NCBI GenBank assembly: GCA_964589955.1
Contig: CAZPVF010000001.1
Coordinates: 1-62,008, forward strand
DNA from: Candidatus Woesearchaeota archaeon
GTDB taxonomy: Archaea > Nanobdellota > Nanobdellia > Pacearchaeales > GW2011-AR1
Length of the DNA stretch: 62,008 nucleotides
Direction: 5' to 3'
Positions 5,337 through 55,674 of this stretch are shown here, one piece after another. The translations under genes were made by a program, and so were the position numbers. The notes under the pieces were generated by a model, which worked only from the letters and a program-made list of their open reading frames with translations, was not told the DNA's origin and ran no database searches. The stretch's first letter is position 1. Each line of letters starts with the position of its first letter.

Positions 5337-5813
5337 ATGGAAAAAGGTAAAGAAAAACTAATAAAAGAATTTGAGAATAGATTTGAAGAATTTAAAAAAG
5401 ATTATGGTTTTAAATCAACTCTTGAAGAACTTGATGAAGCTTTTCATATTAGAGATTCTGTAAAAAAAGATGGTTTTTTATCAACAAGACTTGCAAGACA
5501 AGTTTGTTACAGAATTGTTGAAAATTTTATGGGCTGGAACGATTACTTACATAGTCTAATAATGCCCAATCCTCAAAACATGTTAAATATAAGTGAGAGC
5601 AAAGTATTTAATGGTGATGAAAAAAAAGGAATAACTGAATTAATGAAAACAGCTATGAGAATAAGTAGTAAAAATGGTCTTAATGGACTAAAAAAAGAGA
5701 AGGATGAAGAAGCAAAATTTATAGACGAATCTTTAAAAATATGGAATAAATTATTCAAACCAAAACTAATAGAGGTTATGACTAAAATAAATAATGAATG
5801 GAGTAAAAAATAA
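5337..5813 (+). CDS. hypothetical all-helical 158-aa protein embedded in the r-protein operon
   Basis: ORF starts 1 nt after the eL19 stop, and its TAA overlaps the uL18 ATG (TAATG); I recognise no family. Confidence 0.6.
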   Translation: MEKGKEKLIKEFENRFEEFKKDYGFKSTLEELDEAFHIRDSVKKDGFLSTRLARQVCYRIVENFMGWNDYLHSLIMPNPQNMLNISESKVFNGDEKKGITELMKTAMRISSKNGLNGLKKEKDEEAKFIDESLKIWNKLFKPKLIEVMTKINNEWSKK

Positions 5814-20291: not shown

Positions 20292-21569
20292 TTAAATTTT
20301 TAATGAATTTATATTTACTAACCTTGACAAGAGCAATTTTCCATCCCACGGAGAGTCATAATAATTCATCTGCCCAATTGGAACAATTCTTGAAACTCCT
20401 TGAAGGTTTAATATTTTGCTTATTTTGGTAAGCTTTTTTGTGTTTTTAAAGCCATGCCCTATTGTCTGGATTTTTGATGTGATCAATTTACCTAAATCTT
20501 CCAAATTATTACAAGAGTTCAAAAAAATTGTTCTAGACTTTACTGGCTCTTCTAAATTTGCTTTTTTTCCAAGTATAATTGTCCACTCAGTTCCTTTAGG
20601 ACAAATTACCTTTTTATCTTCATCAAATGTGTTTTCCACTCTTGCCATAATTACATTTCCTGCTTCATAAAATGTTGTATCTTTTTTTAGATATTTTTCA
20701 TCTAAATTTTCAAATTCTTTTTTTAATAAATTAGATATTTTTTCAAGACCTGTAATATCTGTCTCGCACATCAATACTTGTGGGGAAGTACAACTATCTT
20801 GTTCTCCAAAGATTATATCAAACACAAATTTCTTTAGTGTGCTTGTTAGAAGAATTTCATCAGAGATTAATTCTCTATCAATCATTGCAAAAGAATATTT
20901 TGGACCAAAAACCACATCTTCACAAGTTTCTTTTTTACTAAAACTTGAAATCATTTCAATTGACTCTTTTCCTCCCCATATAATTCTTACATCAGAATTC
21001 ATTGATAATTCTAAATTGGTTTTATCTTCCTCTCTTGGATAGTAAATTAGGGCTGTTGAAGAGAGTACTTCTTTTCCAATCAATTTATCTGTTTTAGTTT
21101 TTATTAATACTCCTAATAAATCTTTTATTGTTTCAACACTTCCAAGAGGAATTCTCATTATATTTGAGTTTTTTATAATAATTGATTGAATTAGAGAGAA
21201 AAATCCGAGAGTAACAACATTTCCTGCAATCCAGTGTCCAACTAAGCCTTTAGGTTGGGCAATAAGCATCTTTCCTTCTTTTTTAAAATAATCTTGAAGA
21301 ATATTTGGGTCTTCAAAATTAATTTTAATTATTTTCTCTAAATTTGTTTTTCTAACCCATTGACTTAAAAAAGCTATTCCCTCTATTTTCCTAGTTTTTT
21401 CATTTTTTAGAATATTTTTGCTAAACTCATTAATTAAATCTAATAGATCTTCGGTTTTTATTTTCTCTAGTTTTCTACTATTTGTTTTTACTTTTTTAAT
21501 TATGCCTAATAGGTTTTCAACTTTTTTTTGCTCAAAAAAATTCTCTGAATCAAAAAATACCTGGATCAT
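20292..21569 (-). CDS. LuxC-like acyl-CoA/acyl-ACP reductase
   Basis: About 425 aa; HWIAGNVVTLGFFSLIQ and overall LuxC-family layout; start moved to the ATG at 21569 (1 nt after the LuxE stop) rather than 21659. Confidence 0.65.
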   Translation of the reverse strand: MIQVFFDSENFFEQKKVENLLGIIKKVKTNSRKLEKIKTEDLLDLINEFSKNILKNEKTRKIEGIAFLSQWVRKTNLEKIIKINFEDPNILQDYFKKEGKMLIAQPKGLVGHWIAGNVVTLGFFSLIQSIIIKNSNIMRIPLGSVETIKDLLGVLIKTKTDKLIGKEVLSSTALIYYPREEDKTNLELSMNSDVRIIWGGKESIEMISSFSKKETCEDVVFGPKYSFAMIDRELISDEILLTSTLKKFVFDIIFGEQDSCTSPQVLMCETDITGLEKISNLLKKEFENLDEKYLKKDTTFYEAGNVIMARVENTFDEDKKVICPKGTEWTIILGKKANLEEPVKSRTIFLNSCNNLEDLGKLITSKIQTIGHGFKNTKKLTKISKILNLQGVSRIVPIGQMNYYDSPWDGKLLLSRLVNINSLKI

Positions 21570-21570
21570 T

Positions 21571-22662
21571 TTAATTATCTGTAAATGTGTCTCCGCAACC
21601 TCTTGGTTCACTTTTTTCAACTCGTGAAACAAATTTAAAATACTTTCCTTTTCTTCCACATTCGCAAGAATCCTTTCCTAAAAAAAGGCCTATGTCCTCA
21701 GTTAAGAGTGCCTGCCCAGGATAACTATTAGGTAATACTGAGATAATCTCTATTAATCCTATTTCGTTTTCTTTTACTTCTTCAAGAGTCAGAGGATTTC
21801 TAATTATTATGTCTGCAAAATTTGGGCAGTGCTTATGCCCTTTATCACAATCAATAAAAACAACTCCGAGTTGTTCAACAAGACCATACATATCTAAAAC
21901 CTGGCTATCTTGACCTAACATATTTTTTAATTCTTTAGTAAAATGTTTTTTATCAACTTTTTCTGAAGTTAGTTTCTTCCATCCTCCACTATGAATTATT
22001 GTAAATTTAATATCATACTTCTTTTTTAGTTTTTTTAATTCTTTATAAAAAATACTCCAAATTATATAAGTAAATCCAAACATTATTATTTCCTGACCAT
22101 TATTTTCTTTAACAAAATTTTCTAATGATTCTAGATTTAATTTTAATTTTTCACTTCCTTCAAGAACATATGTGACATTTTTTCCAAAAGGAATTATTCC
22201 TCTTATTGCAGCACCTCTTGCTGAAAGCCCTTTTAATTTTGGATCATTTACTTGAGGAGTATCTATTACCAGCAATGGTTTTCTGCTAGTACCTAAATAA
22301 TTTTTTAAAATACTTGAATAAGCAGAAGTTTGCCTAAATGCTGTCTTTTTATCTAAATCTATTTTACTTTTAATTTGGCTTGTTGTTCCAGAAGAGGTTA
22401 ATGTCCTAATTATATCTTTTTTTGAAACCAATTCAAATACATGTTTTTTAAATAAATTTACAGGAAGTGGAGGAATATCAGAAAGTGAATTTATTTTATC
22501 TATTGGCATAATCTGATCGTAAAATCTTTTGAGTTTTTTATCCTTAATCTGATTTAATAGCTGTTTTTTTATAATTGGTAGTAGTTTTTTTTCTTTTTGT
22601 TTCTGGTTTAAAGAATATTGCTCTAATGAAATTAAATCATTTATTTCTTTGTCCAAATCCAT
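21571..22662 (-). CDS. LuxE-like acyl-protein synthetase/adenylating enzyme
   Basis: 363 aa; TSSGTTSQ P-loop-like adenylation motif; size and adjacency to LuxC. Confidence 0.65.
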   Translation of the reverse strand: MDLDKEINDLISLEQYSLNQKQKEKKLLPIIKKQLLNQIKDKKLKRFYDQIMPIDKINSLSDIPPLPVNLFKKHVFELVSKKDIIRTLTSSGTTSQIKSKIDLDKKTAFRQTSAYSSILKNYLGTSRKPLLVIDTPQVNDPKLKGLSARGAAIRGIIPFGKNVTYVLEGSEKLKLNLESLENFVKENNGQEIIMFGFTYIIWSIFYKELKKLKKKYDIKFTIIHSGGWKKLTSEKVDKKHFTKELKNMLGQDSQVLDMYGLVEQLGVVFIDCDKGHKHCPNFADIIIRNPLTLEEVKENEIGLIEIISVLPNSYPGQALLTEDIGLFLGKDSCECGRKGKYFKFVSRVEKSEPRGCGDTFTDN

Positions 22663-38312: not shown

Positions 38313-38434
38313 CGCCCAGAGCAGGATTTGAACCTGCGACTTTCTCCTTACACCGACTCCTCGCAATTTCCTAGACAGGAAATAAAACGCTCATCGTAGG
38401 AGGGAGACGCTCTATCCAGCTGAGCTATCTGGGC
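38313..38434 (-). tRNA. tRNA-Arg(CCT) with 48-nt intron at the canonical 37/38 position
   Basis: Exons GCCCAGATAGCTCAGCTGGATAGAGCGTCTCCCTCCTA / AGGAGAAAGTCGCAGGTTCAAATCCTGCTCTGGGCG give a full cloverleaf; the intron carries the hairpin TTTCC-TGTCTA-GGAAA. Confidence 0.8.
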
Positions 38435-46428: not shown

Positions 46429-47067
46429 TTATTTCTTTATCCCTAATTCTTCCAACTTGTTTTGAACATGATTAAACAATGTAGATGAAATTAGTGCTTG
46501 GTGTGTTCCTTTATGGGTTTGTTTATCAAATTTAATTTTCCCTAAATAAGTCTGATTCATTAAAATTTTTTTTAATCCATTTACACTAAACCCGTATTTT
46601 TTTGCTAGTTTTGTTAAAGAAATTTTTTTGTTTAAAAAATCTTCAAAAATTTCTGGAACAATATATGAAGTATTTTCGTTAGCGACCAAGTTGCCACCAA
46701 CAATTTTGTATCCATAAGGTGCTCTTGTGACAATACTGCCGTTTTTTGATTTATTGAGCATTCCTTTTTTTGTTCTTTTTGAAACAGATTTAGAGGATTT
46801 TCTAAAAGTATCAAGAATTCTCCCATCTATCTTTTCCGCAATGTATTTCTCGAAATCAACTTCATCATCAGGAGAAAAATAATGGCATATAGAACAAAGA
46901 GTAATTAAATTGCCAATTTCATCATTCCCTCCATCAACCCTCATCTTTATGTGGTGTACTTCTAGCTCATCAGAACGCAGCCTGGAACCGCACTTTTTAC
47001 ACCTGTATCCATCCCTAGAAAAAACTTCAGTTTTTTTCTTAAAAGAAAGTGTTGTTTTTTTAGACAT
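46429..47067 (-). CDS. HNH endonuclease domain fused to a serine-recombinase-type 'Recombinase' domain (no resolvase catalytic domain)
   Basis: N-terminus: [10 protein letters not shown]...[26 protein letters not shown]-terminus: [16 protein letters not shown]...[20 protein letters not shown]...[13 protein letters not shown]...[14 protein letters not shown]. Confidence 0.65.
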
Positions 47068-47079
47068 TTTACATATTAT

Positions 47080-47907
47080 CTACATATTATCAATAGGGGA
47101 TTTTATTTTTTTTAATTCTTCTGTTGAAACATGTGTGTAAATTTGGGTGGTAGATAAGTCTGCATGCCCAAGAAGTGTCTGTATATATCTTATATCGGTT
47201 CCATTTTCTAGCAAATGTGTTGCAAAACTATGTCTTAGTGTATGTGGGCTTACTTTTTTGTTAATATTTGCTTTTTTTGTAGCAATTCTTACTATTTTTT
47301 GAATATTCCTATCAGAAAGTTTTCCTTTTGGGCCAGTGAAAAGAAACTCTTGTTTTAACTCCTTTTGTTGTTGTGTTTGTCTTTTTAATTTTGATTCTAA
47401 AAACTTAGGAATATTAAATACTCTATCTTTTCTTCCTTTTGCCTGCCTAACATATCCAATCATTTGATCAAAATCAAGATCAGATATTTTTAGATTGACT
47501 AACTCTGAAACTCTAAAACCACAAGCATAAATTAAAGAAACCATTAATTTGCTTTTTTTTGTAGGAAGTGCTTCAAAAAGTTTTTTTATTTCTTTTTTTG
47601 TCAAAACATCTGGAAGTTTTTTTTCTCTTTTTGGTCTTTTTATGCCCTGTGTTACATCTTTTTTTAAAATATTTGAATAACTATACTTTATTGCTGCTAA
47701 AAATAAAATTATACTCATAGAAGCCTTGTGGGCAATTTTTTCAGCCATGAAAACCTTAACATCATCTTCTGTTATATTTTCTGGAATCTTTTTAGAAAAA
47801 TCTAGGAGCTCTTTATTTGCTTTAAGATAATTTTTGATAGTGTAATTAGAATTTTTTGAAATTTTTAATTCTGTTTTAAGTTTATTTAAAAATTCTTGGG
47901 GAGTCAT
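47080..47907 (-). CDS. tyrosine recombinase/integrase (XerA/XerCD family)
   Basis: ACGFRVSEL, HTLRHSFATHLL, LLGHADLSTTQIYTHV give the R..HxxR..H..Y catalytic set. Confidence 0.88.
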   Translation of the reverse strand: MTPQEFLNKLKTELKISKNSNYTIKNYLKANKELLDFSKKIPENITEDDVKVFMAEKIAHKASMSIILFLAAIKYSYSNILKKDVTQGIKRPKREKKLPDVLTKKEIKKLFEALPTKKSKLMVSLIYACGFRVSELVNLKISDLDFDQMIGYVRQAKGRKDRVFNIPKFLESKLKRQTQQQKELKQEFLFTGPKGKLSDRNIQKIVRIATKKANINKKVSPHTLRHSFATHLLENGTDIRYIQTLLGHADLSTTQIYTHVSTEELKKIKSPIDNM

Positions 47908-50610: not shown

Positions 50611-50611
50611 T

Positions 50612-50625
50612 TTTGTGCACAAAGG
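50612..50625. repeat. right copy of the 14-nt direct repeat, TTTGTGCACAAAGG (also a perfect 12-bp palindrome TTTGTGCACAAA)
   Basis: Begins 2 nt after the stop codon of the 49951-50610 gene. Confidence 0.6.
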
Positions 50626-50668
50626 TAACCTAAGTATCTGTCGAAGATGTGTCTTACTGTTTGTTTTA

Positions 50669-50809
50669 GGGTGTTTATGCGTTTAAACACCTATTTTATC
50701 GTCGATAAATAAAAAAACATTAATTTTTTTAAACAGCTGTTTAAACGCGTTTATTGCTGTCTATGTGTTTAATAAACAGCTGTTTATTGTAAAATTGCTG
50801 TTTAAACAG
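50669..50809. promoter_or_regulatory. cluster of AAACAGCTGTTT-type palindromes (operator-like) upstream of the 50935 gene
   Basis: GGTGTTTATGCGTTTAAACACC (50669-50691), TTATCGTCGATAA (50696-50708), TTTAAACAGCTGTTTAAA (50728-50745), AATAAACAGCTGTTTATT (50771-50788), CTGTTTAAACAG (50798-50809). Confidence 0.6.
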
Positions 50810-50814
50810 TTCTT

Positions 50815-50844
50815 TTTTCCACTGGAAACGCTGGGGCTCCGACA
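50815..50844 (+). promoter_or_regulatory. ORB-like (origin recognition box) 30-mer, copy A
   Basis: TTTTCCACTGGAAACGCTGGGGCTCCGACA: TTCCA-N3-GGAAA dyad plus GGGG string, as in archaeal Orc1/Cdc6 binding sites. Confidence 0.6.
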
Positions 50845-50934
50845 CATATTTTAAAAAGAATTTTATCGACGGAAAGTACTAAGCAATAGTAATAAAAACG
50901 AAATATTTATATAGTAAACAGCCCTCATTTCTAT

Positions 50935-51555
50935 ATGTTTTTATGGTTTAGAAAAAATAAAGAGGTTGCACGTGTTGAAGAGGATACAAAGAAAGGATTT
51001 GAAGCTGTAAAAAAAGATATTACTTCTATGACTGGTTGGATTAAACACCTAGATTCTGAAAAAAACATGCAAAAAAAAGACATTGATGATATAAAAACTG
51101 TTTTATCGTCGATGCATTCTGAAATTGAAAGTCTGAAAAATATTCTTGCAATGATGAATGAAATGAAAGTTAAGCCGTCATTCCAAACACCTAAACAGGT
51201 GTTTGATAAACAGGCAGGTGTTTATGCTGTTCAAACAGGTGTTGAAACAGGTGTTCAAACACCCAATTTAGACCAATTTTCAGTAACTGAGAAAGCAATT
51301 TTGTGGATACTTTTAAATAGTGACATGAAGCTGAGTTACGATGATCTAGCTGCAATTTTAGGAAAAACACGTTCAACAATTAGAGGCCAGATAAATAGAA
51401 TCAAACAAAAAAAAGAGAATATAATAAGTGAGATAACAGAACAAAATGGTAAAAAAAGAGTCTATATTGAAGACCATATAAAAGAAGAATTAATGAAAAA
51501 CTCAAAAGTAAGAGTAGAACATAAGAGAAAATCTAAGAAAAAAAGCAAAAAATAA
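50935..51555 (+). CDS. coiled-coil plus C-terminal winged-helix DNA-binding protein (paralog 1)
   Basis: 206 aa; N-terminus FEAVKKDITSM...EIESLKNIL; repeat linker; C-terminus VTEKAILWILL...SYDDLAAILGKTRSTIRGQINRIKQK; Lys-rich tail. Confidence 0.6.
   Translation: MFLWFRKNKEVARVEEDTKKGFEAVKKDITSMTGWIKHLDSEKNMQKKDIDDIKTVLSSMHSEIESLKNILAMMNEMKVKPSFQTPKQVFDKQAGVYAVQTGVETGVQTPNLDQFSVTEKAILWILLNSDMKLSYDDLAAILGKTRSTIRGQINRIKQKKENIISEITEQNGKKRVYIEDHIKEELMKNSKVRVEHKRKSKKKSKK
51185..51268. repeat. five AAACAGGTGTT-type repeats inside the linker-coding part of the 50935-51555 CDS
   Basis: AAACACCTAAACAGGTGTTT (8-bp-arm palindrome), then AAACAGGCAGGTGTTT, CAAACAGGTGTTG, AAACAGGTGTTC, AAACACC; encodes QTPKQVFDKQAGVYAVQTGVETGVQTP. 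Confidence 0.7.
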
Positions 51556-51577
51556 GGTAAAATATGTAAAAAATACT

Positions 51578-51896
51578 AAAAAGTGAGAAAAAGCACTAAA
51601 ATAAAGGGTTTTTAATTTATTAAAAATCAAAAAGTGAGAGTTAAAAAAGGTTTATTTTAGACTAAATTAAGTTTAAAATATCAAAAATAGAGAGTTATTA
51701 GGGCCTAAAAGTATAAAATTTAAAGAAATGAGGGTTAAATGGGTAAAATTTGTTGTGTAAAAGTAAAAAATGAGAGAATTACGTTTAAAAAAATATTCTA
51801 AATCCAAGAAAATGAGAGTTGAATTAAAGAGTAATGTATAAGGGATTTTAGGAAAAACTTATTAATTTTATGCTGATTTAAAAGCGAGAAAGGGCT
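51578..51896 (+). repeat. array of seven imperfect about 20-bp direct repeats (consensus AAAAnTGAGAGTTAwwwrGG), iteron-like
   Basis: Core GTGAGA/TGAGAG/TAGAGA/GCGAGA starts near 51583, 51634, 51688, 51729, 51771, 51813, 51884; all same orientation; spacings 51, 54, 41, 42, 42, 71 bp; lies in the convergent intergenic region. Confidence 0.7.
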
Positions 51897-51975
51897 GAAT
51901 TTAGCCATTTCAACAAATAGAAGTCTATTTAGATAGTTATTCGGTGAACGTAAAAACTAATTAATGCTAAATAAT

Positions 51976-52716
<741 letters not shown>

Positions 52717-53831: not shown

Positions 53832-53983
53832 GTGTTTTTTAGATTAAGGAATTTTATAAACTTTTCTGTAAATTTAAATAGAGTTGGGAGTATATAGAAG
53901 CATTAAAAATATGTTTATTTTTAAGAGAAGTGCCTTTCAGAAAGATTAAATTATTTGAAATATCTTTTTATATTAACAACACA

Positions 53984-54009
53984 CTCACCCCTTTATTTCT
54001 TTTGGAAAT
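53984..54009 (-). promoter_or_regulatory. ORB-like element C (degenerate dyad, intact G-string)
   Basis: Reverse complement ATTTCCAAAAGAAATAAAGGGGTGAG. Confidence 0.5.
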
Positions 54010-54343
54010 GTTTATAAATAAAAATTTTAATTTTTAATCTTTTTATTTTATTTATATGAATTTCTATAGTATAGTATATATATGTATTATATTATAATTT
54101 ATAGTATTATATTATAACTATCATAAAATAAACCATTTATTATATATTTTAAAGTACATATAACATATAATTTGGGTTTCGTAATTGTTTTAGAGTATGT
54201 ATTATTTGAAATTAAATATTTTTGCCAAAATTTGTTTTTAAAATATTCCATAAGAAATGTTGGTGTTTTTCTTTTTAAGTAGTTATAATCTTTTAAAAAT
54301 GAAATAAATTTTTTCTCGTCTATACAGATTATTATATTAAGTG

Positions 54344-54368
54344 TTTCCATAGGAAATCAAAGTGTCTG
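54344..54368 (+). promoter_or_regulatory. ORB-like element D (perfect dyad TTTCC-ATA-GGAAA, weak G-string)
   Basis: TTTCCATAGGAAATCAAAGTGTCTG. Confidence 0.5.
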
Positions 54369-54462
54369 TGTTAGATGTTTTGGAATGATAATATTTCAGA
54401 ACATAAACTCTTAAATAACAATACGTTCTTTTAAGAGTCTTTAGAGGTAGCATTAAGAGAGG

Positions 54463-55674
54463 ATGGCAACAGAGTTAGATCAAATATTTGAATCTTTTAG
54501 TAAGAATAGTGTGTTTAGAGATAAGAGCCTTCTACAGATAAATTATAAACCTAGCGAAATTGTTCATAGAGATGATCAAATAAAGCAGATAGCTTCAATT
54601 CTTGCACCTGTATTAAGAGGAGAAAAAACAAGTAATTTGTTTTTGTATGGGAAAACAGGTACAGGTAAGACTTTATCAGTACAATACGTTAAGGATGAGT
54701 TATTAAAAAGAGCTAGTAAGAAGATAGATCATAAGTTAAGAATAGAGTATTTAAACTGCAAATTAAAAAAAGTGTCTGATACTGAGTATAGAATTTTAGC
54801 TGAATTAATTAAAAAATTAGGAGGGGATGTTCCTGCTACTGGTCTACCTACTGAGGCTGTCTATAACAAATTTATTGATATAATTGATTCAGAAAAGCAG
54901 CTGTTGGTTTTGGTTTTGGATGAAATTGATCAGACTGTAAAGAAAATATCTAGTGATTTTTTGTATAATTTAACTAGGCTTAATTCAGAACTTTCTAAAA
55001 CACAAATTTGTATTGTTGGAATAAGCAATAATTTAACTTTTTTAGAAGAACTTGATCCTAGGGTAAGAAGTTCACTATCTGAAGAGGAGATAGTATTTCC
55101 ACCTTATAATGCATTACAACTGCAAGAAATACTTAGCATAAGAAGTGACGGAGCTTTCAAAAAAGGAGCTGTTGAGCAGGGAGCAATAGCAAAATGTGCA
55201 GCATTTGCAGCAAGAGAGCACGGAGATGCTAGAAGGGCACTCGATTTATTAAGAATTGCTGGAGAATTGGCTGAAAGAGGAAATTCAAAGAAGATTTTAT
55301 TAAAGCACATAGATGAAGCAAATGAAAAGCTCGAAAAAGATAAGATTCTGGATGTAATAAGATCTGAGCCTAAACAATTTCAACTTGTTTTGTACTCTAT
55401 TATGGTATTAAGTGATAAAAATAAAGATACGCCTTTTTTTACTGGAGATGTTTATAATTTTTATCAGGATCTTTGCGAAAAAAATAAATTAGAGGTTTTA
55501 ACACAGAGAAGAGTTAGTGATATTATTCAGGAGTTTGATATGTTGGGAATAATTAATGTTAGGGTTATTTCAAAAGGAAGAGGGGGCAGAATGAGAGAGA
55601 TTAGACTGGTTATATCAAAAAATATTTTGAAAAAGGCTAGAGAAATAGTTGAAGAATCTATAGATTATAAATAG
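54463..55674 (+). CDS. cdc6: Orc1/Cdc6 replication initiator
   Basis: LYGKTGTGKT Walker A, LVLVLDEID Walker B, sensor regions, C-terminal winged helix. Confidence 0.93.
   Translation: MATELDQIFESFSKNSVFRDKSLLQINYKPSEIVHRDDQIKQIASILAPVLRGEKTSNLFLYGKTGTGKTLSVQYVKDELLKRASKKIDHKLRIEYLNCKLKKVSDTEYRILAELIKKLGGDVPATGLPTEAVYNKFIDIIDSEKQLLVLVLDEIDQTVKKISSDFLYNLTRLNSELSKTQICIVGISNNLTFLEELDPRVRSSLSEEEIVFPPYNALQLQEILSIRSDGAFKKGAVEQGAIAKCAAFAAREHGDARRALDLLRIAGELAERGNSKKILLKHIDEANEKLEKDKILDVIRSEPKQFQLVLYSIMVLSDKNKDTPFFTGDVYNFYQDLCEKNKLEVLTQRRVSDIIQEFDMLGIINVRVISKGRGGRMREIRLVISKNILKKAREIVEESIDYK

Follow-up and report, generated by a model that had tools for sequence, protein, structure and literature searches.

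What function could a row of short, equally oriented DNA repeats have between two archaeal genes that converge on each other? The question is raised by a locus on contig CAZPVF010000001.1 of a Candidatus Woesearchaeota archaeon, of which a stretch of 62,008 nucleotides, hereafter the window, was analyzed. This archaeal contig has a GC content of 29.4%, and the locus in question is the spacer at 51556–51975, enclosed by the gene hth206 (50935–51555, + strand) and the gene hth246 (51976–52716, – strand). A first-pass annotation, made from the letters alone, had placed seven iteron-like copies of one motif in this spacer and had offered an iteron origin, a centromere-like site or a non-coding RNA (ncRNA) as explanations. 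We observed a conserved, strand-specific and helically phased array of a 14-bp motif, which overlaps the 3' end of the winged helix-turn-helix (wHTH) gene hth206, is capped by a dyad, and lies apart from the canonical origin.

Motif array in the convergent spacer

The spacer measures exactly 420 bp from stop codon to stop codon, and its GC content of 23.3% places it in the lowest 3.8% of the 420-bp windows of the stretch. Both the extent of the convergent region between two gene 3' ends and its rank among the most AT-rich parts were correctly annotated in the first pass. The + strand of the spacer is rich in purines. The position weight matrix (PWM) by which the copies were scored was built from relatives alone, so the scoring is not circular. 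The GAG cores of the annotated copies (copies 1 to 6 and a seventh) lie at 51585, 51636, 51690, 51730, 51772, 51814, and 51886, and their scores were 7.3, 25.8, 11.8, 5.5, 9.6, 10.1, and –4.1 bits, respectively. Six of the seven are thus supported, whereas the last one (AAAAGCGAGAAAGG, 51880–51893, + strand), at 23.8 turns from copy 2, fails as a member of the array. Nor is the array limited to the spacer. Although the remaining copies do lie there, a further copy of 13.4 bits (copy 0, AAAAGTAAGAGTAG) was found on the + strand at 51504–51517, where it overlies the 3' end of the hth206 gene and codes for K-V-R-V. The corresponding "anchor" copy is the best conserved one in the clade, and copy 0 is its degenerate form in the window.

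The strongest site is copy 2 (AAAAGTGAGAGTTA, 51630–51643, + strand), a perfect consensus, and exact 11-mers of the surrounding segment 51624–51656 recur in the loci of up to 40 of the 80 relatives described below. The other supported copies in the spacer, likewise on the + strand, are the weak copy 1 (AAAAGTGAGAAAAA, 51579–51592), copy 3 (AAAATAGAGAGTTA, 51684–51697), the weak copy 4 (AGAAATGAGGGTTA, 51724–51737), copy 5 (AAAAATGAGAGAAT, 51766–51779), and copy 6 (GAAAATGAGAGTTG, 51808–51821). With copy 2 as zero and 10.5 bp as one turn, copies 0 to 6 fall at –12.00, –4.86, 0, 5.14, 8.95, 12.95, and 16.95 turns, and the resultant (R) of these seven supported copies is 0.88 (simulated p ~0.004). 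When the annotated copies are aligned at the GAG core, their spacings are 51, 54, 40, 42, 42, and 72 bp instead of the 51, 54, 41, 42, 42, and 71 bp given before; the claim of near-integral helical turns holds, and it extends to a quantization at 10.5 bp across species.

By comparing the two strands of the array region, five matches of at least 8 bits were counted on the + strand and none on the – strand, in agreement with the annotated common orientation. Composition-matched Markov sequences gave a mean of 0.25 such matches and a maximum of 3 in 5000 trials, so the cluster stands out from a background of the same composition. A loose consensus search of the whole window returned 69 matches versus 62 expected. 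As the loose consensus is not enriched window-wide, the signal is a local same-strand cluster; that search was uninformative and was replaced by the relatives-only PWM and the cluster statistic. A reading of the copies as mini open reading frames (ORFs), with peptides beginning M-R-V and spacings that are multiples of three, was rejected, because the start codons are unconserved (ATA in copy 3) and the copies of relatives are spaced by 40, 41, and 44 bp. The array also differs from clustered regularly interspaced short palindromic repeats (CRISPR), which have near-identical repeats of 24–37 nt at a constant period, whereas the copies here share only ~14 nt, are degenerate, and are spaced by 40–72 bp. 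In addition, a 20-nt inverted repeat (51596–51615 and 51641–51660, 85% complementary) brackets the strongest copy.

Conservation of the array among relatives

Species representatives of GTDB were scanned with Orc1, which gave 80 loci with 76–83% Orc1 identity, and ~20 kb per relative was covered. The closest relatives of the window are metagenome-assembled genomes labelled Pacearchaeota, Woesearchaeota or Nanoarchaeota. Forty-eight species-level loci had enough DNA upstream to form a syntenic set, and the gene order was constant in 48/48: hth206 (+), the spacer, hth246-p92-p135-PRC-barrel (all –), a second spacer, and orc1 (+). All 48 syntenic species carry same-strand copies of the motif. The first-pass annotation had stated that absence of the repeat from syntenic loci with retained genes would speak against it; motif, strand, and position were kept in every one of these relatives. 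The length of the convergent spacer ranges from 48 to 444 bp among them, and the spacers can be aligned over stretches of just ~23–115 nt that include the motif, except within the groups L003/L005 and L011/L015/L020.

The pentamer GAG[AG]G occurs 92 times on the + strand of the relatives' spacers and once on the – strand. With the PWM of the clade (consensus ctAAAAAAgcCAAAAGTGAGAGTTAaa, threshold of at least 12 bits), 123 matches on the + strand and 0 on the – strand were found in 12.7 kb comprising the spacers and 70 nt each, and the remaining 909 kb held 37 and 7 matches, respectively. About half of these outside matches on the + strand are further copies within the hth206 gene, 80–156 nt ahead of its stop codon. 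Inverted motif copies were sought in the 3' end of hth246 and none were found, and a scan of viral contigs for the two-copy pattern gave no match. A possible co-variation of the recognition helix with the motif, approached through the divergent locus L101, was uninformative because the copies at that locus are unphased and possibly there by chance.

Helical phasing of the spacings

Across species, the distances between consecutive copies cluster at 41–43, 52–54, 63–64, 73–74, 84, 94–95, 104, 115, and 126 bp. The resultant peaks at periods of 10.25–10.5 bp, with zero phase at 10.5 bp and R = 0.58–0.64 (n = 76–91). At 10.5 bp, R was 0.64, with a locus bootstrap interval of 0.52–0.75 and a null maximum of 0.32, and it was 0.62 after the few alignable relatives and the window itself had been dropped. 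Measured from the copy in the gene to the first strong one in the spacer, the distances range from 4 to 13 turns (n = 46), with R = 0.82 and a phase of +3 degrees, and 91% of them lie within 1.5 bp of n × 10.5. An independent exact-pattern scan of metagenomes gave 23 matches at hth206 3' ends, spaced only by 40–45, 53–54, and 62–66 bp (R = 0.81), whereas the 59 remaining ones, for the most part unrelated satellites or hits in coding sequence, were unphased (R = 0.19) and were used only as a control. Given this quantization at the B-DNA repeat, all sites must lie on one side of the helix. Whole-turn spacing is the classical signature of proteins contacting each other across sites, either by looping or as a one-sided filament. 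Thus, the 10.5-bp quantization points to protein binding on one DNA face, not to RNA.

Two kinds of repeats with the word GTGAGAGTTCTCAC also came up in this metagenome scan, both unlinked to hth206: an unrelated, more GC-rich satellite of ~22-bp units (L094, L103, L124) and arrays with a period of 64–66 bp (L086, L114, L135).

Motif copies over hth206 codons

The first copies of the array fall in the final ~150 nt of hth206, and two or more of them overlie codons there, in two different reading frames. In nearly all relatives the strongest copy lies ~45 nt ahead of the hth206 stop codon and encodes K-V-R-V-K. At this site Val192 is GTG in 44/47 orthologues, versus a 22% share of GTG in the Val codons of the whole gene, the Lys before it is AAA in 47/47, and Val194 is GTT in 40/47 (40 of the 44 Val codons). 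The second in-gene copy, ~140 nt ahead of the stop codon, encodes K-S-E in a different reading frame, and here Ser is AGT in 33/35 (background 28%) and Glu is GAG in 20/25 (background 32%). Since the same DNA word is kept in two frames, selection acts on the nucleotides, and not on the protein alone.

Dyad capping the array

An imperfect dyad, AGTTATTC-GGTGAACG-TAAAAACT, is located on the + strand at 51935–51958, 18 bp before the stop codon of hth246. Its clade consensus was derived from a positional profile as AGTTATTC-GGTnAAnn-GAATAACT; the register was set by a fixed-register profile, as an unconstrained palindrome search was too noisy. A-GTTATTCGGT was found in 45/49 spacers (with at most 2 mismatches to GTTATTCGGT), ~8–45 bp ahead of the hth246 stop codon, and the second, inverted arm is less conserved. 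This spacer accounts for 18 of the 20 exact matches to GTTATTCGGT in ~970 kb. The complementarity of the arms is 62% in register versus 24–36% when slid, and 5.5 of 8 positions pair per locus, versus 3.8 under the null, while compensated arm changes amount to 7/30. With in-register complementarity and few compensations, a dyad recognized by protein fits better than an RNA stem, and the RNA hairpin reading was rejected on the scarce compensation and the weakness of the hairpins. The distance from the array to the dyad ranges from 20 to 225 bp, and its phasing is weak, with R = 0.27 overall and 0.43 for distances below 60 bp, a subset chosen post hoc. The dyad is flipped in 7/45 loci, and its arms have the word AGTTA in common with the repeats.

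In the lineage of L116, L098, L100, and L083, a second complete module with four repeats at ~44 bp and a dyad (AATTATTCGGTTTAACGAAAAT) was observed. In L116 it occupies 5400–5661 on the – strand, in inverted orientation and 2.2 kb from the native module, between a Zn-ribbon gene and an HNH gene and ~600 bp from xer. The module opens with a remnant of the hth206 tail (E-K-V-R-V-R-K-R-K-K-stop), and, judged by its sequence, it looks like a duplicated 3' piece of hth206. The native and the second module flank hth206 like inverted ends.

Candidate binding proteins

The array adjoins two genes for DNA-binding proteins, as had been annotated, and both products are predicted to combine a coiled coil with a wHTH domain. 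Each is a candidate binder, hth206 (206 aa) with array copies in its 3' 150 nt and hth246 (246 aa), of the HTH_36 class, converging on the array. The AlphaFold2 (AF2) model of hth206 has a long N-terminal helix (residues 2–78), a disordered linker of GVQT repeats, a wHTH domain (117–186; predicted local distance difference test score ~90), and a basic tail. Its Pfam match to HTH_11 is below the cutoff (22.9 bits), Foldseek returned only generic wHTH folds of the MarR/ArsR type, and its family comprises 2156 uncharacterized homologues. The AF2 model of hth246 shows the same architecture of long helix, disordered linker, and wHTH domain. This protein matches Pfam HTH_36 with 27 bits (cutoff 25) and, weakly, the PHROG family "replication initiation O-like" (E = 3e-4), and many of its ~2250 homologues carry PF13730 (HTH_36) or PF21984 (DnaD_N). 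The wHTH domains of the two proteins are homologous (hhalign E = 1.3e-5), and their predicted recognition-helix residues are nearly invariant. Sequence and fold searches of the PDB with both proteins gave generic MarR/ArsR wHTH matches only and no functional lead. Two wHTH heads joined through long flexible linkers to a parallel coiled coil would make a plausible bridge between two sites of the same orientation.

The linkers of both paralogues are encoded by tandem 12-bp repeats that give tetrapeptides, GVQT/GVET in hth206 (51228–51263) and DRQT three times in hth246 (~52365–52405). The contigs of L023, L025, and L026 break within hth206 at residues 84–95, at or just before the linker. At the N-terminus of hth206 (residues 1–10, 50935–50965), the sequence MF-x-WF-x-x-KK is nearly invariant in the family, with M1 and F2 conserved, and to judge by sequence this tip resembles a hydrophobic membrane-targeting tip such as that of Noc or SepF.

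Genomic neighborhood

The region 53832–54462 contains ORB-like (origin recognition box) dyads, TTCCATAAGAAAT..GGTGTTTTTCTT and TTTCCATAGGAAA, with clade-conserved k-mers in 30–58 loci, and an AT-only stretch. It lies directly upstream of the Orc1/Cdc6 gene (54463–55674, identified by Pfam), which is followed by the genes of PolD DP1 and DP2. Given the ORB dyads, the AT-only stretch and PolD directly after orc1, we take this region outside the array as the canonical origin. It lacks the GTGAGAGTTA motif and is 1.9 kb from the array; orc1, PolD DP1/DP2, and the ORB-like dyads together lie 1.9–2.5 kb from the array. The sign of the GC skew changes at ~50 kb. The motif was also considered as an ORB and rejected as such, because the clade ORB (TTCCAnnGGAAA, from 80 orc1-upstream regions) is unlike AAAAGTGAGAGTTA, which has no dyad. 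In ~27/80 relatives (L002, L007, L012, L013, L016, L024, L030, L031, L043, L044, and others), contigs end 15–650 bp upstream of orc1, a pattern suggestive of systematic assembly breaks within the AT-rich, repeat-bearing origin region.

The promoter-side spacer of hth206 (50611–50934) contains a further, full ORB-like element with a G-string (TTTTTCCACTGGAAACGCTGGGGCTCCGACAC, 50812–50845), and together with the origin ORBs it means that the five-gene cluster is bracketed by ORB-bearing regions. The same spacer has perfect palindromes AAACAGCTGTTT (50731–50742 and 50774–50785) as well as GCTGTTTAAACAG, all of them clade-conserved elements. In relatives it carries runs of GGTGTTTAA/GCTGTTTAA units with a period of ~10 bp, and [GC]TGTTT reaches 17.8 per kb there versus 0.95 per kb elsewhere.

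At a distance of 3 kb upstream of hth206, the window has a gene for a XerA-like tyrosine recombinase (47080–47907, – strand), which matches Pfam Phage_integrase with 154 bits and has a SAM-like domain at the N-terminus. Orthologues of xer occur 0.8–3.5 kb upstream of hth206 in 23/36 loci with at least 5 kb visible upstream (window included), and the intervening genes differ among loci despite the kept linkage. In the window, the xer gene is followed by an ORF (46429–47067, – strand) with HNH and "Recombinase" domains.

Interpretation and alternative explanations

We propose that the ~14-bp sites (consensus AAAAGTGAGAGTTA), which all have the same direction and lie on one face of B-DNA, are recognized by a sequence-specific, cooperative DNA-binding protein. 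The distance between sites has been free to evolve only by whole helical turns. The binder may be hth206 and/or hth246, whose long coiled-coil helix, flexible linker, and wHTH domain would suit the bivalent bridging of sites. The resulting nucleoprotein complex may serve chromosome maintenance near the origin, as a centromere-like or organizing element and not as the origin itself, and the dyad could be either the nucleation site of this complex or a separate site for the XerA-like recombinase. Taken as a composite of cooperative binding by the flanking coiled-coil wHTH paralogues and of an origin-proximal organizing or centromere-like role, this is a reading to which we attach about even confidence.

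Several observations weigh against it. The third wHTH gene (p92) and the XerA-like gene are also near, and the identity of the binder is a matter of inference. The 14-bp motif is non-palindromic, which is unusual for coiled-coil dimers, and the hth206 promoter region has other conserved palindromes (AAACAGCTGTTT) that would be better suited to a dimeric wHTH protein. At the divergent locus L101 the copies are unphased and possibly chance occurrences, and with ~20 kb covered per relative the locus is not established as unique per genome. Furthermore, the families ParA, SegA, ParM, TubZ, and SMC had no Pfam match among the 38 ORFs scanned, which include all neighbors at 42–62 kb; with no partition NTPase (nucleoside triphosphatase) among these ORFs, a classical partition cassette is absent there. 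The centromere-like label of the first-pass annotation keeps some probability, without the partner that a classical partition site would have in the window.

The main rival reading is that the dyad, AGTTATTC-N8-GAATAACT, would be the dif-like core of the neighboring XerA-like recombinase and the phased repeats accessory or architectural sites controlling synapsis or direction, which we regard as possible but unlikely. The dyad is conserved and nearly unique to the spacer, its inverted arms around an asymmetric center of 6–8 bp have the geometry of a tyrosine-recombinase core, it shares AGTTA with the repeats, and the recombinase gene is 3 kb off in the window and 0.8–3.5 kb away in 23/36 loci. 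In Thermococcus kodakarensis, the published dif site is likewise found in a spacer between convergent genes, and the DNA around it is functional (PMC11840125); since archaea are without FtsK, another control of direction is to be expected (PMC8371274). However, the archaeal dif hallmark TAA-N6-8-TTA (PMC11840125) is missing, the inner arms ending in ..ATTC/GAAT.., and the locus is beside the origin and orc1, not at the terminus. Moreover, the array-dyad distance of 20–225 bp with its weak phasing (R = 0.27) does not fit known accessory systems, which need a fixed geometry, the dyad is flipped in 7/45 loci, and 13/36 loci have no xer gene in the visible 5–7 kb. The array could also be a transcriptional insulator or roadblock between convergent units, in which a protein array and opposite-strand oligo-T runs stop read-through and collisions. 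In every case the array is flanked by gene 3' ends on both sides, on the – strand its copies read TTTTTAACTCTCACTTTTT with oligo-T runs of the archaeal terminator type for the hth246 operon, and the second module of the L116 lineage is likewise in a convergent spacer, downstream of a same-strand gene. On the other hand, oligo-T termination requires no 14-bp motif, no helical phasing, and no in-gene copies, and the motif is missing from the other spacers covered, both in the ~909 kb beyond the module and elsewhere in the window. As the L116 module seems to have arisen by duplication of an hth206 3' end, its convergent setting does not count as separate evidence. This role is distinctly unlikely.

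An iteron-type origin or replication-control site, at which hth246 would bind the repeats as a wHTH initiator of the HTH_36/DnaD_N/lambda-O-like kind, had been offered by the first-pass annotation and is very unlikely. Phased direct repeats do adjoin an HTH_36 gene (27 bits) with a weak O-like PHROG match, the in-gene copies parallel the lambda origin, the spacer is AT-rich, and the locus is within the region bracketed by ORB-like elements at 50.8 kb and 54.2–54.4 kb. But the canonical ORB-type origin, with its dyads and AT-only stretch upstream of the orc1 and PolD genes, is 1.9 kb away and lacks the motif, and 51556–51975 has neither an AT-only block or discrete unwinding element nor the clade ORB motif. 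In addition, a site spacing of 4–13 turns is much wider than in usual iterons, which are ~2 turns apart; the direct repeats are spaced by 40–126 bp (4–12 turns) and have an informative core of ~14 bp. Viral contigs gave no two-copy match. The ncRNA alternative of the first pass, or a 3' untranslated region with repeated protein-binding modules (RNA unit GUGAGAGUUA) acting like a CsrB/RsmZ sponge, would agree with the presence of all copies on the purine-rich sense strand of hth206 and hence in a read-through transcript. It is highly improbable, as a spacing at the B-DNA repeat has no rationale in RNA, the folding energy of the spacer equals the shuffle mean (z = –0.01), Rfam gave no match even at E = 1, and only 7/30 arm changes of the dyad are compensated. 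Least credible of all is that the copies are functionless decay products of a tandem duplication of the Lys/Arg-rich hth206 3' end. The repeat does resemble the K-V-R-V-K tail codons, five of the six window spacings are multiples of 3, and the L116 lineage shows that an hth206 3' piece can duplicate. Decay, however, would not keep a motif in 48 species with otherwise largely unalignable spacers, nor on one strand, and would neither quantize spacings at 10.5 bp nor constrain synonymous sites in the gene; the comparative data effectively refute it.

Going beyond the composite reading of cooperative binding near the origin, we hypothesize, tentatively and with rather low confidence, that the array, the dyad, and the two coiled-coil wHTH paralogues may form an unrecognized chromosome-maintenance system of Pacearchaeota-type DPANN archaea. 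It would be either an origin-proximal centromere or anchor or the missing direction-control region of XerA. The reader protein would bridge same-face sites, and it may tether them to the membrane via the N-terminal MF-x-WF tip, without a ParA or SegA motor.

Comparison with known systems and significance

Repeat sites with a centromere-like function include sopC of F (12 × 43 bp downstream of sopB), parC of R1, and tubC of pBtoxis with its wHTH binder TubR, and parS of B. subtilis lies inside the spo0J gene. Like these partition sites, the array is a same-orientation cluster downstream of and partly inside a gene for a DNA-binding protein, with whole-turn phasing, proximity to the origin, and a position where no promoter is needed. 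Unlike them, it has no NTPase partner (ParA, ParM, TubZ or SegA) among the ORFs scanned here, its spacing varies from 4 to 13 turns where they have a fixed unit, its 14-mers are non-palindromic, and its candidate binders are from an uncharacterized archaeal family of coiled-coil wHTH proteins. In lambda cI, AraC, LacI, and DeoR, cooperative binding or looping depends on the helical phase, and only changes of distance by whole turns are tolerated, a dependence that is seen here as an evolutionary pattern with a period of 10.4–10.5 bp. Those operators are linked to promoters, whereas the array sits where two genes end and extends into the coding sequence of one of them. The iterons of the lambda origin lie inside the O gene, and the sites of iteron initiators are 17–22 bp long. 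The array resembles iteron origins and ORB clusters in that its direct repeats adjoin and partly enter a wHTH gene of the HTH_36/O-like class close to orc1, and it differs from them by a motif unrelated to the clade ORB TTCCAnnGGAAA, a wider spacing, and the lack of a discrete unwinding element.

Accessory sequences of Xer recombination are known from cer (ArgR/PepA), psi (ArcA/PepA), and the DR1/DR2 repeats of the Tn4430 IRS, while difH and difSL are dif sites of single recombinases, systems in which the recombinase gene is often close by. Shared with cer, psi, and the Tn4430 IRS are a dyad with an asymmetric center, oriented extra sites on one side, and a gene of the Xer family within a few kb. 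Unequal conservation of the two arms, as in this dyad, is also seen in difH (PMC3325230). Different from all of these and from dif sites are the unfixed array-dyad distance, the missing TAA-N6-8-TTA, and the position adjacent to the origin. A boundary element around dif of T. kodakarensis, where a TrmBL2 filament stalls Smc-ScpAB (PMC11840125), is similar in that an AT-rich convergent spacer holds a dyad, and there the flanking DNA, not the dyad, recruits a filament-forming protein of the wHTH class that organizes the chromosome. TrmBL2, however, binds by DNA shape and composition and not by a phased 14-bp motif, and that element is ~1.9 kb long and at the terminus. In addition, no SMC family was matched among the ORFs scanned in the window.

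Arrays of phased repeats as such are familiar from iterons, centromeres, and looping operators. No description of this array was found, and literature searches for a prior description in Pacearchaeota turned up nothing relevant. What is new is an archaeal chromosomal array that lies in part over coding sequence in two frames, has a spacing that varies only in whole turns, and is tied to an uncharacterized protein family. To our knowledge, the organization, segregation, and resolution of the very small chromosomes of DPANN archaea are essentially unknown, and no lineage is genetically tractable. As a testable handle on them, the locus combines the 14-bp motif and the dyad with two or three candidate binders and a Xer gene; all of these lie no more than 5 kb from the origin and are conserved in dozens of species. 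As a comparative sign of cooperative assembly of protein on DNA, the cross-species quantization at 10.5 bp is unusually clean, and the in-gene copies mean that arrays of binding sites can overlie codons in two frames. Should the Xer reading be right, it would bear on how archaeal XerA gets its direction without FtsK; should the centromere reading be right, the locus would be a partition element of the chromosome for which no motor is known.

Other features of the window

Between tRNA-Gly and tRNA-Leu, Rfam called a transfer RNA (tRNA) of 122 nt at 38313–38434 (– strand); it is missing from the ARAGORN calls and presumably belongs to the archaeal tRNAs with an intron. In addition, genes for a LuxC-like acyl-CoA reductase and a LuxE-like acyl-protein synthetase were observed at 20292–22662 (– strand) within a large cluster for glycosylation and the cell surface (10–34 kb), an unusual content for a reduced DPANN genome.

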